Positions 6,505 through 63,789 of a stretch of 64,000 nucleotides of DNA are shown here, piece after piece. The notes below the pieces were generated by a model. The model made no database searches. It had not been told where the DNA came from and saw nothing but the letters and a program-made list of their open reading frames with translations. The translations under genes and the position numbers were made by a program. Location of the stretch: the NCBI GenBank assembly GCA_047947115.1, contig CP170459.1, positions 3,616,001 through 3,680,000 on the forward strand, written 5' to 3'. The stretch comes from Verrucomicrobiota bacterium (GTDB lineage: Bacteria; Verrucomicrobiota; Verrucomicrobiia; Limisphaerales; AAA164-E04). Position 1 is the stretch's first letter. Each line of letters starts with the position of its first letter.

Positions 6505-6814
6505 GAGTGTCTTTTGCAGGATTTTTGGTTGCCTCGTTGAGGGTTTGATCGTCCCGCCCCGATTCTGATCGAATCCGAAGTCTCAACAGCCCAGGACGGG
6601 ACCACCTCCAAGGCATGCAATGCCCGATGTCCATCCTGTAAATTCTATTCATTCCCTGAAAAGGACACCTTCCGAGGTTGGACGCCAGGTTCCAGGAAAT
6701 GCAGTTAGGAGTGAGTGTGTGTACCACATCCTGGCGCATCCGGTTATTTTCCATAGAAAGGAGTTCTGGTTTTTATTTGCGGATTTTGTTGTTTCGTGGA
6801 ATAAAAATGGTCAG

Positions 6815-56430: not shown

Positions 56431-59043
56431 CTAATTGTCCCTTTGTACTCGATAGAACTTTTGTGCGCCATGAATGTCCGCCTGCCAGGAGGTCGAATTA
56501 CCTGATGCGCTGACGCCAGAGGCGACTTCAGACCAATTGCCCGATGCAATGTCATCTGATGACAGAATGGTGTATGAACCTCCGGAAACGCTGCTGAAGG
56601 TTAATTCAAACTGCCCGCCTGAGATCTGTGCGGAACCAAGCACTGGCGCCTCCAAAGGTTCTGGCTTACCTGTCTGAACCCCTTTCGCGTTGAAGACTCT
56701 CACGTTGTCAATAAAGACGTCCACATATCCGTCAAAACCTCCCTGTGAAACCAAGTTGATATTCGGCGCAGGGTCAGCCCAGTCAACGGATGCCAGATTG
56801 ACGGAGGTGGTTCGGCGCACTTCGCTGCCCACCCAGTTCGGGGTCAGACGTAGACCGGTCGCCGAAGGTAGGAACTGGAACCACGAGACCGCCGTATTTG
56901 GATCCGGAACGATGACGAAGTCGTAGCTCAATGTGTAGTGCACACGGTCTTCAGGAGCTATGCCCGCGATGATCGAATTGAAAGTGGCATTTTGAGATAG
57001 CTCCATGACGGCTACAGTGGTCCAACCTCCATCGTCGATTTCAATCCAGGCCGCTCCATCACCTTCCGAAATGCGTGGATCATCCGCGCCTTCTCGCGCG
57101 TAGTCATAAAGAGGGAATCCACCCTCGGTCAACAAAACCAGATCAGGGCCTTCCAATCCGTCGATCAAGGTTTCTTCAGGTGCATAACCCCTGGCATAGG
57201 TGTCAAGCAAACGGATGTTGTCAATATATAGTTTGCTTGCTTCGCTCAAATCTCCATTGAACCCGAAACCAATGGCAATGCGTCCGTCTTCGTTGGGCAC
57301 CAGATCATTTCCATTACGGACCGAATCAAATTCAATAAAGGCGGTCACGGGTTCGTCCCAGGTTCCATTTGCTTCGATCTGATCTCCATAAGTAGCGTCT
57401 CCGATCCAAACCGGGTTGTTTGCCCAGTTTCCGCCACCACTGCCAAAGGTGATGTCATACAGTAACCACCAGCGATGCGGGGCATCTTCGTTCCAGGCTT
57501 CTAGTAAAGTCGAGGAAGCCTCAGGACTAAGTAACACTTGGAAGTCCTGAACCCATCCGGACATGGTGTTGAAGGATACTTCCAGTGCCTTATCGCCGTC
57601 GGTAACTCCTGCAATGGTGCCGTCGGCTGTCAGATCCGCTACCTTGTATTCGGTCCGGTCGCCGTTCCAGAGGATCGCGGTATCCAGAATGGATTCGTTG
57701 TCGGCTTCTTCAAAGGATTCCAACAAAACGGTCGGTAAAACGACAGGCTCCTGTTTCACCAGGCTGGGGAGCGTGATGGGTTCTTCCAGAGGTTGGAATA
57801 TGAGGTTGGTCAACGGTGCTCCGTCCATGGTTAAATCAATGCTGGCTCCACCATGATCTCCCGCTTCACTTGTCCAGTCTCCGTTGAACCAGTTCACTTC
57901 GATTGGATATAGTCCGGCAGTGGTAAAAAAGGCGCTGCCATCCGGATTTGGTCCGGGTGCGCCGTGGCCGCCGTCGTTGTTTACGACTACCTGATTGCTG
58001 ATTCGAACGACGGATCCATCATCCGAAGCACTGGTGAAATCATGCTTTCCAGGGGTGTCGATTTGAATCAAACCTCTCAGCTGGATCATGCCGTCATCCA
58101 GATTGCCTTCCGTTCCGGAAAATGAACCGCTGTCACCAGCCAACCAATCCAGGATAGGTGTCAAATCATCGCCAGTGTAGCTAACGTTGGTCGAAACAAA
58201 GGTGCCTTGCGGATCGGAATTGATCATGAAGATGCCATGATCATCTCCCGGCACGGTTTGGAAAACCGGCCCTTGGGTGCCTTCGCCGAATTCAAACCCC
58301 TTGGGTTCCGTGGTCCAGTATTTGCCGGCCAAGCCTGCGTCACCCGATTCGGCAGATATAGCGGATACCCCGATTGCTGCGGCTCCGACATCTGAAGCGC
58401 TGTAGAGCAGGTCACCGGAAATGGCTTCACCATCGGCGAGGATATTCAGGCTGGCGCCACCGTGGTCTCCAGCATCACTGGTCCAGTCGCCATTGAACCA
58501 GGCGATTTCAATGGGATACAGGCCTGCTTGTTTGAAATCGAATGATCCATCCGGTGCATCGCCTGGAGCCCCGTGACGGCCATCGTTGTCGACCACACGT
58601 TCGCCGGCAATCCAGATGATGGAACCGTCGTCGGATTCACTGCGCAGGTCCATGATGCCCGGAGAATCCACACGCAGGTATCCGGTGAAACTCAATAATC
58701 CATCATCCATGTTGCCGTCCGCTCCGACATAAGACGCACCATCAGCCTGGAGCCAGTCTCGGACAGGAGTCAGGTCATTGCCACCTTGATAGCTCAAGCC
58801 GGTGGCAGTGAAAGTGCCGGTAGGGTGGGCTCCGCGAATGATCTTCAAGCCGATGTCCTTTTCACCGCCTTTGTCATCCAGGTTGTCGATGGTTGCGACA
58901 CCTGCGTGCCAGTAACGACCGTCCAGGCCGCTGCCCGTATCAGGTATTCCGTTGAGAGTGAGAATCTCCTGGGTGAGTACATTCGTTGACATGCACATGG
59001 ATAAACCGCATGTGGCGAACACACGAAAAAGGTTTCTGGACAT
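56431..59043 (-). CDS. secreted protein with two tandem PA14-like domains and C-terminal FYRV-type domain
   Basis: Signal peptide; duplicated GLxGxYW...SDDGS...VVxNDGxHG...GLYPIE units; acidic beta-rich middle; ends QKFYRVQRDN. Confidence 0.85.
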   Translation of the reverse strand: MSRNLFRVFATCGLSMCMSTNVLTQEILTLNGIPDTGSGLDGRYWHAGVATIDNLDDKGGEKDIGLKIIRGAHPTGTFTATGLSYQGGNDLTPVRDWLQADGASYVGADGNMDDGLLSFTGYLRVDSPGIMDLRSESDDGSIIWIAGERVVDNDGRHGAPGDAPDGSFDFKQAGLYPIEIAWFNGDWTSDAGDHGGASLNILADGEAISGDLLYSASDVGAAAIGVSAISAESGDAGLAGKYWTTEPKGFEFGEGTQGPVFQTVPGDDHGIFMINSDPQGTFVSTNVSYTGDDLTPILDWLAGDSGSFSGTEGNLDDGMIQLRGLIQIDTPGKHDFTSASDDGSVVRISNQVVVNNDGGHGAPGPNPDGSAFFTTAGLYPIEVNWFNGDWTSEAGDHGGASIDLTMDGAPLTNLIFQPLEEPITLPSLVKQEPVVLPTVLLESFEEADNESILDTAILWNGDRTEYKVADLTADGTIAGVTDGDKALEVSFNTMSGWVQDFQVLLSPEASSTLLEAWNEDAPHRWWLLYDITFGSGGGNWANNPVWIGDATYGDQIEANGTWDEPVTAFIEFDSVRNGNDLVPNEDGRIAIGFGFNGDLSEASKLYIDNIRLLDTYARGYAPEETLIDGLEGPDLVLLTEGGFPLYDYAREGADDPRISEGDGAAWIEIDDGGWTTVAVMELSQNATFNSIIAGIAPEDRVHYTLSYDFVIVPDPNTAVSWFQFLPSATGLRLTPNWVGSEVRRTTSVNLASVDWADPAPNINLVSQGGFDGYVDVFIDNVRVFNAKGVQTGKPEPLEAPVLGSAQISGGQFELTFSSVSGGSYTILSSDDIASGNWSEVASGVSASGNSTSWQADIHGAQKFYRVQRDN

Positions 59044-60469: not shown

Positions 60470-61393
60470 ATGGACCACACCTTATCACGCCGCAGATTTC
60501 TTGGTGCTTCAGTTGCCGCCCTGGCCACGTCACCCACCTGGTTGCAGGCGCAATCAAAGGAGCCCACCGGGTTTCAATTGGCATGTATGACGTTGCCCTA
60601 TGGTCAGTTTCCTTTAAAGCGAGCTTTACAAGGGATTCGTGCGGCCGGATTTGATTATGTGGCTTGGGGGACGACTCATCGGGAGACGCCGGGAGGTGAC
60701 CGCATTCCAGTGATGCCGACCGATGCCCCGACGCATCGCGCCAAAGCGTTGGGGCAAGAGTGCCGGGACATGGGCCTGACTCCTCTGATGATGTTCAGTA
60801 CGGTTTACCCCGAACACAATGATGGTTTGAAGATCCTGACGCATCGGCTGAAACAGGCGGCTGCGGCCGGTATTCCGCAGGTGCTGACATTTGGGCATAC
60901 CCAGGGAGGAAACCGACCGGTGTGGGTGGCGCGATTCAAACAACTCGGTCCGATTGCAAGAGATCTGGGCGTGACATTGGTTGTCAAGCAACACGGGGGA
61001 GAAACCGGAACCGGAGAAGATTGCGGGGAGATCATCCGTGAGGTGAATGATCCGGGAGTGCGTGTCAATTATGATGCGGGCAATGTCATGGATTACCTCA
61101 ATGTGGATCCGATTCCGGATATCCAAAAATGTGCCGATGTGGTTCACAGTTTCTGCATGAAAGACCACCGCAACTGGCCAGAGGATCGCGACTGCGGACC
61201 CGGGTGGGGGGAGATTGATCATTATCGCTTGTTACATCCGGTGGCATGGACCGGACGAGATATGCCTTTGTGTTGTGAAAACATATTCAAACCCCTGGTG
61301 CCGCGTCCCGAACAGGCGGAAGGCATCGATGATTTGGCCAGGAGTGTTCGGAAATACCTTCAGACTGTTATTGCAGGCTTGAAGACTCTTTAG
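60470..61393 (+). CDS. sugar phosphate isomerase/epimerase (TIM-barrel) family protein, Tat signal
   Basis: SRRRFLG, AGFDYV, KQHGG, NYDAGN, MKD, GWGEID. Confidence 0.85.
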   Translation: MDHTLSRRRFLGASVAALATSPTWLQAQSKEPTGFQLACMTLPYGQFPLKRALQGIRAAGFDYVAWGTTHRETPGGDRIPVMPTDAPTHRAKALGQECRDMGLTPLMMFSTVYPEHNDGLKILTHRLKQAAAAGIPQVLTFGHTQGGNRPVWVARFKQLGPIARDLGVTLVVKQHGGETGTGEDCGEIIREVNDPGVRVNYDAGNVMDYLNVDPIPDIQKCADVVHSFCMKDHRNWPEDRDCGPGWGEIDHYRLLHPVAWTGRDMPLCCENIFKPLVPRPEQAEGIDDLARSVRKYLQTVIAGLKTL

Positions 61394-63411
61394 AGATCAC
61401 TCAGTTGGCGTCGCACCCAATCTTCGTTGAAGGACCGGGCATAGATGCGGTTGCGAACAGAGATGCCTTGATGTTGGATGGAGATGATGCCGGAGAGCCT
61501 TAAAGGGTGTAGGACCGAATCCTGAATGCTTTCCATGGGGACCGGGGTAGCGGTCAATATCTGCTGATATGATTCCATGACTTCTTTGACAGGCGTCCCT
61601 GAAGCCAGCAGCCAGCGGCGGACGAAATTCAGGTTGTCATCTTCTTCCTGGGCTTTTGATGTCAAAAAGAGATTTTCGCACAGCGCGTCCACGTCTTCTT
61701 TTTGTTGCACCGATGTGTCTTCCGCAATACTGCGGCAGAGTCGTTGTGTGAGGTAGGGATGTCCATTGGTCCAGTGAAAGACCCGTTCAAGCAACTGACC
61801 TGCGATATTTGCTTCACGGTTCAATCCATCTGCCAGCGCTTTGATGGCTTCCGGTTCGAAATCGGACAGCTCGATGCGATGAGCAATATTGAAAGGAGTG
61901 GAACGTTCGTCGGAAATCAAGTCATCGGGTTTGGCCACCCCGAGCAGGCAAAAGGTCAATCGGTGGAAGGCTGCATCCTCAGCCCGACGATTGAAACATT
62001 CACGCATGGCTGCGAAGAATTCATCGGTGGCGAACGGCAAGCTTCGTACTGCGTCGACTTCGTCGACAAACAAGACCAGCGCCCCCGAATACTGTTCCAT
62101 GGCGATGTCGCGTAATGCACCGAAAAGACGTTGGACCGGACTCAATCGTTCGTATTTGAACCAATAATCCTCCATTTCATCCTCCAGACGCAACTGTCGT
62201 GCAGCGCGGTTGAGCAGGCCGTCATACCATTGCTCGGGCGTCACATTCTGGCCGACAGCGGTGAGGTCGAGCACGACCACACCGATTCCTTGTTCGCGTA
62301 GTCTGGCGGCGGATCGTACCATGAGCGAGGATTTGCCCATTTGCCGGGAAGTCAGCACATACCAAAGTTCCGATGCCAGCAAATTGGAAACGAGTTCGCG
62401 GTCCGCTTTGCGTTCGACGTAGCTGCGGGCGTCGGCCCGTAATGTGCCTTTGTCATGGAAAAATCCTGTTTCCTTGCGTTGAATTTCCTGAAGCTGCTTT
62501 TTGGCCAGTGCGGATTCGACGCGGGCAAGGAGCAGCGTGGTGTTGCAGGGTTTGGGAAGAAAATCGTCCGCGCCCATCTTGATGCAATGGACCGTGGTGG
62601 AGGTTTCATCCGAGGCGGACAGCATCACTACGGGAATACGGCTGAGCGTTGTATCGGATTTGAGTTTGCTGAGTATTTCAAATCCGTCCATTTCGGGCAT
62701 GATCATGTCCAGGAGCACCAGGTCGACCGATTCCGAACGGAGCATTTCAATGGCCTTTGGGCCGCTCTCCGCTGACAGTGTCTTGCAGCCCTGGCGTGCC
62801 AATCGGCGCTCCATGAGATCTCGGTTCAAGGGGTCGTCATCCACGACCAGAATGGTGGCATTGTTCCATGCGGGTTCGGATACATCGATGGGAGAGGCGG
62901 CCGCCACAGGGACCGACGGCCAGCTGATATCCGGTATTTTCTCATTCTGAAGGATGTCTGAAGCGTCCACGATGAGGTGAGCTTCCAACAGTTCCAGCAA
63001 CGTTTTGGCGGCAGTGATGACACGCTCGAGATCCTTGATCTTGATAGTGTCATCGAACTCTTCAGCTTGTTCGATCAGGATTTCCGCATAGCCGATGATG
63101 TGATTCAGCGGTGTGCGAAACTCATGTTGCACCCTTGGAAGATCCAGCTTGGCGGGGCGTGTTTGCGAGTCGTCGAAATAGTAGCGGACTTGTGTGAGGA
63201 GTTGGCGTCCCGCATTCAGGATCTTTTCCAGATCGGAATCATATTTATCCCAAGCTTCGTCGCAAGACTCTTCCAGCAACATGTCCGAATACCCCAGGAT
63301 GTGGTTGATGGGAGTCTTCAGGTCATGGCGGATTCGGGCCAGACGAGCATTCTTTGTCGATGCTTGCACGTCGGTAAGGGCTGGACACTTGTCATCTGGT
63401 TCTTGGTTCAA
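61390..63411 (-). CDS. HisKA-HisKA-receiver-AAA_35 (STAND-like NTPase) fusion protein
   Basis: RHDLKTPINHILGY and QHEFRTPLNHIIGY H-boxes; receiver VVDDD..LLDMIMP..KP; YVERKAD, SRQMGKSS (Walker A), LFVDEVD (Walker B), TPFNI, WTNGHPYL, RNRIY. Confidence 0.85.
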   Translation of the reverse strand: MNQEPDDKCPALTDVQASTKNARLARIRHDLKTPINHILGYSDMLLEESCDEAWDKYDSDLEKILNAGRQLLTQVRYYFDDSQTRPAKLDLPRVQHEFRTPLNHIIGYAEILIEQAEEFDDTIKIKDLERVITAAKTLLELLEAHLIVDASDILQNEKIPDISWPSVPVAAASPIDVSEPAWNNATILVVDDDPLNRDLMERRLARQGCKTLSAESGPKAIEMLRSESVDLVLLDMIMPEMDGFEILSKLKSDTTLSRIPVVMLSASDETSTTVHCIKMGADDFLPKPCNTTLLLARVESALAKKQLQEIQRKETGFFHDKGTLRADARSYVERKADRELVSNLLASELWYVLTSRQMGKSSLMVRSAARLREQGIGVVVLDLTAVGQNVTPEQWYDGLLNRAARQLRLEDEMEDYWFKYERLSPVQRLFGALRDIAMEQYSGALVLFVDEVDAVRSLPFATDEFFAAMRECFNRRAEDAAFHRLTFCLLGVAKPDDLISDERSTPFNIAHRIELSDFEPEAIKALADGLNREANIAGQLLERVFHWTNGHPYLTQRLCRSIAEDTSVQQKEDVDALCENLFLTSKAQEEDDNLNFVRRWLLASGTPVKEVMESYQQILTATPVPMESIQDSVLHPLRLSGIISIQHQGISVRNRIYARSFNEDWVRRQLSDL

Positions 63412-63426
63412 ACCGTTTAAGAAAGG

Positions 63427-63789
63427 TTAGGAAAGCAAGTTTTGGATCTTTTCAAGCAGGCGTTTCAAATCCACGGGTTTGGTGTCGAAATCACCACAAC
63501 CGGCTTCGCGCGCTTTGGCCTCATCGGATTCCATGGCGTGAGCGGTGAGGGCGATGATGGGAATGTTGCGGGTTCTTTCATCCGCTTTGAGTTGTCGCGT
63601 GGCTTCCCATCCATCAATCTCCGGCAAGCTCATGTCCATGAGGATGAGGTCAGGCTTCTCGTTGGATGCCATGTCAATGCCTTCCTTGCCATCAACAGCA
63701 ATGGCGACCTCGAACTCACGACGCTGAAGCCTTCGACTCAGCATGTCGCGGTTCATTTCATTATCTTCCACCAACAAAATTTTAGGCAT
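63427..63789 (-). CDS. single-domain response regulator (CheY/DivK-like)
   Basis: ILLVEDN, LILMDMSLP, ALTAHAM, TKP. Confidence 0.95.
   Translation of the reverse strand: MPKILLVEDNEMNRDMLSRRLQRREFEVAIAVDGKEGIDMASNEKPDLILMDMSLPEIDGWEATRQLKADERTRNIPIIALTAHAMESDEAKAREAGCGDFDTKPVDLKRLLEKIQNLLS

Follow-up and report, generated by a model that had tools for sequence, protein, structure and literature searches.

Introduction

In some phosphorelays a single-domain receiver is connected to an output receiver through a kinase-derived histidine module, in an order exemplified by Spo0F-Spo0B-Spo0A; among these modules Spo0B, ChpT and RedE are homodimers with a degenerate ATPase domain. The subject of this report is a gene for a 673-residue protein in a 64,000-nucleotide stretch of the genome of a Verrucomicrobiota bacterium (positions 3,616,001–3,680,000 of contig CP170459.1, assembly GCA_047947115.1; hereafter the window), in which two tandem HisKA hairpins of the dimerization and histidine phosphotransfer (DHp) type are fused to a receiver (REC) and to an AAA_35-type STAND NTPase. 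The reading favored here, tentatively and with slightly less than even confidence, is that the protein closes a phosphorelay of four steps and serves as sensor subunit in a STAND (NLR-like) switch made of two proteins. Kinase-derived histidine modules incapable of autophosphorylation are described, in the available parts of the respective papers, for PhyT, which has a degenerate ATPase domain (PMC5898713), and for RedE of Myxococcus (PMC2755868). Like PhyT, RedE, Spo0B and ChpT, the fusion has such a module between a single-domain and an output receiver; unlike them, it has no catalytic domain, carries two hairpins in one chain and is joined to its target receiver and output.

On its output side the protein recalls NtrC1, NtrX and LuxO (PDB 1ny5, 5m7o and 5ep0), which also comprise a receiver, a signaling helix, an AAA+-fold ATPase and a C-terminal helical, DNA-binding-like domain, and receiver control of assembly is likely shared; the fusion differs in its STAND/MNS-like ATPase, in a winged helix instead of a Fis-type helix-turn-helix and in its built-in tandem DHp. 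The locus also resembles the Caulobacter DivK-PleD operon (PDB 1w25), where a single receiver gene directly precedes a receiver-output gene, and the first receiver of PleD is the best solved relative of the receiver of the fusion. Where PleD has GGDEF as output the fusion has an NTPase, and its single receiver follows a tandem DHp.

NAIP and NLRC4 form a sensor-helper NLR pair; the arrangement proposed below would be similar in dividing the work between a STAND subunit that senses and a TIR-bearing one that executes, and different in that its input would be aspartyl phosphorylation and not a ligand on repeats. PAB2304 (PDB 2qen), a STAND protein of the MNS clade, shares a P-loop NTPase, a helical domain and a winged helix with the fusion (Foldseek template-modeling score 0.57 on the target, root-mean-square deviation [rmsd] 8.5 Å, 16% identity). 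The same clade includes the Npun2340/2341 family, a name given in Kaur 2021 (PMC8195603), to which AAA_35 may correspond; two subfamilies, often with paired genes, are common to both. Unlike the NTPases of these STAND proteins, that of the fusion lies at the C-terminus, lacks sensor repeats and follows two-component domains. Kaur 2021 also reports kinase-independent receivers in conflict systems, and Kaur 2020 (PMC7159879) lists receivers and FHA domains among effectors and no histidine kinase domains; the available parts of the two papers do not describe this fusion, and the main text of a 2026 survey of 589 STAND clades (10.64898/2026.01.04.697583), whose supplements may list the clade, contains neither receivers nor AAA_35. 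No description of the HisKA-HisKA-REC-AAA_35 architecture or of a tandem HisKA-receiver cassette was found in the searchable literature, which is mostly without subscription papers; the fusion, built from known parts, is apparently undescribed there.

Domain Architecture

Pfam places HisKA in two stretches of the protein (58.8 bits, cut-off 26.9), Response_reg at residues 187–298 (105.8 bits) and AAA_35 (PF14516) at residues 321–662 (105.7 bits against a cut-off of 27, covering profile positions 3–330 of 331); the HATPase_c families that a hybrid histidine kinase would contain gave no match at E ≤ 0.1. Together with a 35-member alignment, these matches confirm the first-pass annotation of this DNA, which had described one open reading frame (ORF) with two HisKA hairpins, an intact receiver and an AAA_35 NTPase but no HATPase_c. 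The second hairpin is separated from the receiver by a 34-residue linker only. In the AlphaFold2 model (mean predicted local distance difference test [pLDDT] 80), four long helices are followed by a disordered linker (residues 148–178, pLDDT below 50), a receiver whose C-terminal helix is long and an NTPase that has helical and winged-helix domains. The tandem hairpins are modeled with confidence as a single-chain four-helix domain (pLDDT 87, predicted template-modeling score 0.82). Against libraries of single chains, Foldseek found no match to the tandem DHp at E ≤ 0.001 and the VIA-align matches were bundles of a generic four-helix kind, the top one with Z 15.2, rmsd 2.9 and 139 aligned, so that the proposed identity of the hairpins with a DHp dimer rests on sequence.

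The hairpins have an H-box His on the predicted four-helix bundle and no ATPase domain, as in DHp-type phosphotransferases; the receiver has the acidic pocket, phosphoacceptor Asp, switch Ser/Thr and Lys of a response regulator; and the NTPase shows the STAND layout of a P-loop with Walker A and B motifs followed by helical and winged-helix domains, the first Gly of Walker A being replaced by Thr. Pfam found no repeats after the NTPase. The protein ends at the winged helix, aligned homologues end at the same point and the stop codon overlaps that of a convergent sugar-isomerase-like gene, so no repeats follow, in line with the absence of WD40 and TPR noted in the first-pass annotation; the canonical NLR layout, with an N-terminal effector and a C-terminal repeat sensor, is thus absent. 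The short linker and the convergent next gene also rule out that a kinase domain or downstream repeats were split off by a frameshift.

Two further identities were considered and rejected. A sigma-54 activator is set aside for the lack of a GAFTGA motif and of a Sigma54_activat match in Pfam, and an Avs-type (Avs/bNACHT) defense protein for the lack of a defense model on the NTPase and of a defense-island context: in PADLOC no model matched the NTPase part and only the receiver was matched (21–22 bits), and the neighbors are metabolic and signaling genes, with no defense context seen.

Conservation and Distribution

The fusion is a real, conserved gene of uncultured Verrucomicrobia. HisKA, receiver and AAA_35 are combined in 37 of the 120 listed homologues (the window's own included), the source labels of the fusion proteins being Verrucomicrobia, and receiver-AAA_35 proteins of 518–579 residues without HisKA are about as common (36/120). 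D191, D192 and D235 are invariant in the 35 aligned family members, S/T265 is present in 35/35 and K287 in 34/35, and the residues of Walker A and B are invariant. His29 is kept in all 33 AAA-type members that cover its position and in 85 of 87 other (non-AAA) cassette proteins, a near-invariance across AAA, cyclase and SpoIIE versions that fits a phosphoacceptor role; His96 is kept in 29/35 AAA-type members. A second conserved His lies at H+8 of both hairpins (His37 in 30/33 and His104 in 26/35 of the AAA family), a position where the presumed cognate kinase has Ala.

Among 401 genomes of the window's order, the junction profile matched ten, nine with the fusion, full-length in seven of them, and one (G367) with a cyclase version. 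Nine DHp2-REC-AAA sequences form one supported clade (97/97), and a tenth, P0045, falls outside it with weak support. The whole ORF, including the REC-AAA junction (~62466), is spanned without joints by single contigs in 4/4 sequencing runs from four estuary or seawater studies, one of which (run X1) may be the source sample; these bridging contigs and the shared architecture of the homologues rule out an assembly chimera at the junction. Against G626, a single pair with few changes, the hairpins had dN/dS values of 0–0.09, the receiver 0.24, the first 111 NTPase codons 0.06 and the linker ~0.94; against G189 the ratio was saturated. Collection scans with patterns from the junction alignment, which were unspecific, returned almost only generic receivers among the matches listed, with one family member (L126, on the same contig as G442), and protein atlas leads were all under 0.9. 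Contigs from RNA runs cover the ORF with the DivK-like gene (X15) and the TIR-AAA_35 gene described below (X15, X16), ending just upstream; as contigs cannot show transcription, they give a weak hint of expression.

Cassette and Gene Neighborhood

The HisKA2-REC part occurs widely as a cassette, mostly with a SpoIIE phosphatase or a cyclase as output. Residues 18–312 as a query returned 89 non-AAA proteins among the best 120 matches, with SpoIIE (46), class III cyclase (34), HATPase (5) or no listed output (4), and in the fusion the AAA domain occupies the place that the cyclase or SpoIIE holds in the sister cassettes; these counts support the earlier description of a domain-shuffled protein. 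The gene order kinase, DivK-like receiver, DHp2-REC-output recurs in L025–L029, L217 and L222, and in L217 (G328) the complete order is found with the AAA version, behind a LamG-type hybrid kinase. In the window itself, the DivK-like receiver gene noted upstream in the first-pass annotation is present (Table 1) and likely co-transcribed with the ORF; it lies directly upstream of the fusion in 7/9 fusion-bearing genomes.

The claim that the input has no kinase held for the ORF and not for the system. A cognate-looking sensor kinase with LamG, carboxypeptidase-regulatory, propeller, PAS, HisKA and HATPase domains is encoded divergently just past the window edge, so the system does not lack a kinase; in the genome of the window (G000), however, its gene is broken by a deletion with frameshift at L001:5561 and by a stop at 6661–6663. 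Run X1 has both breaks, whereas in runs X5, X10 and X15 Trp stands in place of the internal stop and 5561 has extra sequence, and G626 is ~1 kb longer than G000 over the kinase interval with the deletion; the breakage is therefore a real strain allele. Broken and longer kinase alleles coexist in the population sampled by public runs. Two other kinases of G000 (Table 1), almost identical in DHp docking code, could supply the relay instead.

Table 1. Features of the fusion locus and of other loci in the window and the genome (window positions unless a locus or genome is named).
Feature	Coordinates	Strand	Size, basis or remark
ORF with tandem DHp (HisKA-HisKA), receiver and receptor-type AAA_35/STAND NTPase	61390..63411	-	673 residues; TTG start codon; ends in winged helix
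DHp hairpin 1 (residues ~20–80)	63172..63354	-	Pfam HisKA 23–80
His29 codon (hairpin 1 H-box)	63325-63327	-
His37 codon (H+8)	63301-63303	-
DHp hairpin 2 (residues ~88–148)	62968..63150	-	Second Pfam HisKA stretch
His96 codon (hairpin 2 H-box)	63124-63126	-
His104 codon (H+8)	63100-63102	-
Flexible linker (residues 149–182)	62866..62967	-	pLDDT and dN/dS; where kinases would have HATPase
Receiver with C-terminal signaling helix	62497..62862	-	Pfam Response_reg; best PDB sequence match first receiver of PleD
Asp235 codon (phosphoacceptor)	62707-62709	-
AAA_35 NTPase, receptor (R) subfamily, with helical domain	61393..62466	-	Pfam, model, Foldseek and tree
Walker A	~62329-62355	-
Walker B	~62053-62073	-
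Winged helix	~61396-61590	-
Single-domain DivK/Spo0F-like receiver	63427..63789	-	120 residues; 15 bp upstream of the ORF
Divergent sensor kinase, three pieces	L001:4014-7959 (G000:C1:3680014-3683959)		Just past window end
TIR_2-AAA_35 orphan, effector type	L006:8128-9687 (G000 ~4.338 Mb)		Proposed partner
AAA_35-FHA protein	L005:8802-10238 (G000 ~2.153 Mb)		50% identical to the NTPase of the fusion
Kinase with nearly the same docking code	G000:C1:1727360-1730398	+
Kinase with nearly the same docking code	G000:C1:330449-335545	-
PA14 protein	56431-59043	-	870 residues; signal-peptide-like N-terminus, PA14 domains, C-terminal half mostly without Pfam match

Evidence for a Phosphorelay

At H+7, 8, 11, 12 and 15, which we take to be the receiver-specificity positions of DHp domains, the two hairpins are most similar to the divergent kinase, with 34 other parsed H-boxes compared (6/42 HisKA matches had an unparsed H-box). 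On the receiver side, where the scoring covered 52 of 69 receivers, helix 1 of the ORF's own receiver is most similar to that of the DivK-like protein, with a score of 37; the next best of 51 others reaches 26. The docking code of the kinase is identical or differs at one position in 8/9 cassette loci. These codes fit a Spo0F/Spo0B/Spo0A-like chain with its last two steps fused, and docking residues that match those of the neighboring kinase, with the confident four-helix model, make the suggested role of the HisKA pair as a phosphotransfer module plausible. Both H-boxes also retain Thr at H+4 (27/33 family members for hairpin 1, 29/35 for hairpin 2), a residue associated with phosphatase activity.

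AAA_35 Subfamilies and a Candidate Partner

In a tree of 47 hand-chosen rows, AAA_35 domains split with 100/100 support into a receptor (R) and an effector (E) subfamily, and the NTPase of the 673-residue protein is of R type. E-type domains score ~200–370 bits to AAA_35 and are preceded by N-terminal TIR, Ser/Thr kinase or cyclase-like domains; R-type domains score ~80–125 bits and are N-terminal in 114 of the 120 listed long relatives, for most of which WD40 or TPR is listed. None of these relatives (1179–3365 residues; the best 120 of 401 matches) had a receiver match, which is weak evidence against repeats split off from the fusion. Genes for an E-type and a long R-type protein are adjacent in L033, L034, L035 and L250/L259, WD40 being confirmed in L033 and L035. 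The assignment of the NTPase as AAA_35/STAND-like stands with a full-length match; as to the oligomerization that phosphorylation was suggested to control, the receptor-type subfamily points to a hetero-complex with a separate TIR-AAA_35 protein and not to self-oligomerization alone.

G000 holds three AAA_35 genes, far apart, for the fusion, an R-type AAA_35-FHA protein and an E-type TIR-AAA_35 protein, the proposed partner. An E-type gene is present in all nine fusion-bearing genomes, compared with 63/401 genomes of the order, where AAA_35 of any type occurs in 70/401; in the window's family both types are present in 11/14 genomes and neither in 3/14, the genes being unlinked where checked. 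A complex of the NTPase of the fusion with that of the TIR-AAA_35 protein is predicted with a score of 0.59, against 0.08 for the best of three controls, none of them a homodimer (contact agreement at least 89%, partner pLDDT at least 83). The mark used was reached by 116/157 solved and 2/215 mismatched pairs, and at scores up to 0.60 by 18 solved and both mismatched pairs, so the prediction lends weak support. A single further protein, P0291 (2243 residues), has a LamG-PA14-propeller-Y_Y_Y ectodomain and transmembrane helix, homologous to those of the divergent kinase, fused directly to an R-type AAA_35 without kinase domains; the same sensor would thus reach an R-type ATPase with or without a relay, which supports the ATPase being downstream.

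Other AAA_35 arrangements were seen. The AAA_35-FHA protein recurs unlinked in many TIR-AAA_35 genomes, including complete genomes in which no other AAA_35 genes were found. On contig C219 of G606, L250, L251 and L254 comprise a TIR-AAA_35 gene, a long R-type protein and two or more tandem Ser/Thr kinase-AAA_35 genes. A separate receiver-AAA_35 clade (~520–580 residues; L261–L263, L271, L272; P0049–P0087) lies among hybrid kinases and other receiver genes, and further architectures include HAMP-AAA_35, AAA_35-PAS-AAA_35, AAA_35-DUF2092 and triple AAA_35-CHASE2.

Proposed Mechanism and Alternative Explanations

In the proposed mechanism, the divergently encoded membrane sensor kinase would phosphorylate the DivK-like protein, which would hand the phosphate to His29 of the single-chain bundle, His96 being dispensable in some members; the bundle, mimicking a kinase dimer, would transfer it to Asp235. 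The C-terminal helix of the phosphorylated receiver would then release the ATPase, as happens in NtrC-type proteins, and the freed R-type ATPase, with its presumed ATP turnover and without an enzyme or repeat domain of its own, would assemble with the sole effector-type AAA_35 protein of the genome and so cluster the TIR domains of TIR-AAA_35. The scheme builds on the observed architecture, conservation, gene order, subfamily split and co-occurrence; its phosphotransfer steps and their direction, the hetero-complex and the output are inferences.

Several observations weigh against this scheme. In the relay, the divergent kinase leads in docking code by a single point (score 22, with two other kinases at 21 and 19), Thr at H+4 of both H-boxes would allow phosphate to flow either way, the DivK-like gene was not found upstream at 2/9 fusion loci, the kinase is broken in G000 and G626 and G249 carry truncated copies of the fusion. 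An E-type gene is present in 9/9 fusion-bearing genomes, but these are kin and the count is not independent; none lies adjacent to the fusion at any of the nine loci within the fetched flanks, and 63/70 AAA_35-bearing genomes of the order have an E type in any case, 7/70 lacking one. Paralogous AAA+ domains such as those in the predicted complex may dock by resemblance. A Rosetta-stone R-E fusion was looked for and not seen: the three double-AAA proteins checked by tree are all R-R, none R-E, and one triple is also R-type. The TIR output is the weakest link: at the position presumed to be the catalytic Glu, 7/11 aligned TIRs have Glu and 4/11 Gln, including that of G000 (Gln76 of TIR-AAA_35, L006; common within the genus), which makes an NADase output of the partner doubtful in this genome, and the TIR in this genus may be an adaptor instead.

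The most serious competitor, which we nevertheless hold to be unlikely, is a self-sufficient NtrC-like regulator: phosphorylated at Asp235 by the relay, the protein would homo-oligomerize and act on DNA or a client protein through its own winged helix or ATPase surface, TIR-AAA_35 being unrelated. The REC-AAA+ proteins NtrX and NtrC1 do take the top Foldseek ranks, a winged helix closes the model, no adjacent E-type gene occurs and the existence of tandem R-R proteins suggests R-R contacts; the missing GAFTGA motif, the N-terminal position of the same winged-helix-ended domain in the long relatives, mostly with WD40 or TPR, and the retention or loss of R and E types together in all 14 genomes of the window's family argue the other way. 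It is a little less probable again that the tandem DHp is a phosphatase, a sink or a DivL-like binding site for the DivK-like protein, with the kinase phosphorylating Asp235 directly and the bundle tuning or timing the signal. The fixed gene order, with its single receiver in the middle, resembles Spo0F-Spo0B-Spo0A and so tells against this, although the Thr at H+4 is compatible with it and the helix-1 code common to both receivers would let the kinase dock to either. The near-invariance of His29, too, is what a phosphoacceptor would show, although RedE likewise requires its His, and in the available parts of the papers RedE, which is kinase-like without autophosphorylation, dephosphorylates RedF (PMC2755868) and PhyT has a dual role (PMC5898713).

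Reversal of the signal to the standard STAND polarity, with the NTPase as input and DHp2-REC as an effector whose phosphotransfer to the DivK-like protein is controlled by nucleotide state or a partner, appears improbable. The N-terminal domain is usually the effector in STAND proteins (PMC8195603, in the part available), and E-type proteins carry N-terminal TIR or kinase domains; but cyclases and SpoIIE phosphatases, which are outputs, have this same cassette at their N-terminus, the NTPase is not followed by sensor repeats and P0291 has its R-type AAA directly behind a transmembrane sensor. Least probable of all is a decaying relic, an intact ORF that has lost its input in this lineage. Decay is suggested by the two kinase breaks in G000 and run X1, by a 693-bp deletion in the AAA part of the fusion in G626 together with a stop in the G626 kinase, by the truncated copy in G249 and by G424, where the fusion gene was not matched by the query used. 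Three other runs, however, read through the kinase stop and carry the extra sequence at the deletion point, dN/dS is low for the DHp and AAA parts, most fusion-bearing genomes have full-length copies and two other kinases could dock through nearly the same code.

Implications

Beyond a relay-controlled sensor subunit, a TIR-AAA_35 executor switched by interchangeable unlinked sensors, by a His-Asp relay that the fusion turns into STAND hetero-oligomerization and by phospho-threonine through the AAA_35-FHA protein, is conceivable in Verrucomicrobia, although we think it somewhat unlikely; if true, this hub would be a direct junction of two-component signaling and NLR-type machinery. The single-chain tandem-DHp cassette heads many uncharacterized cyclases and phosphatases (2233 matches among 8000 scored candidates, most uninspected), and the small soluble trio of the DivK-like protein, the fusion and TIR-AAA_35 offers a tractable entry to the large unstudied paired AAA_35 systems. 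If the proposed mechanism holds, a STAND NTPase would join the known outputs of response regulators, and NLR-like proteins would be switched by the cell's own phosphorelay instead of by a foreign ligand.

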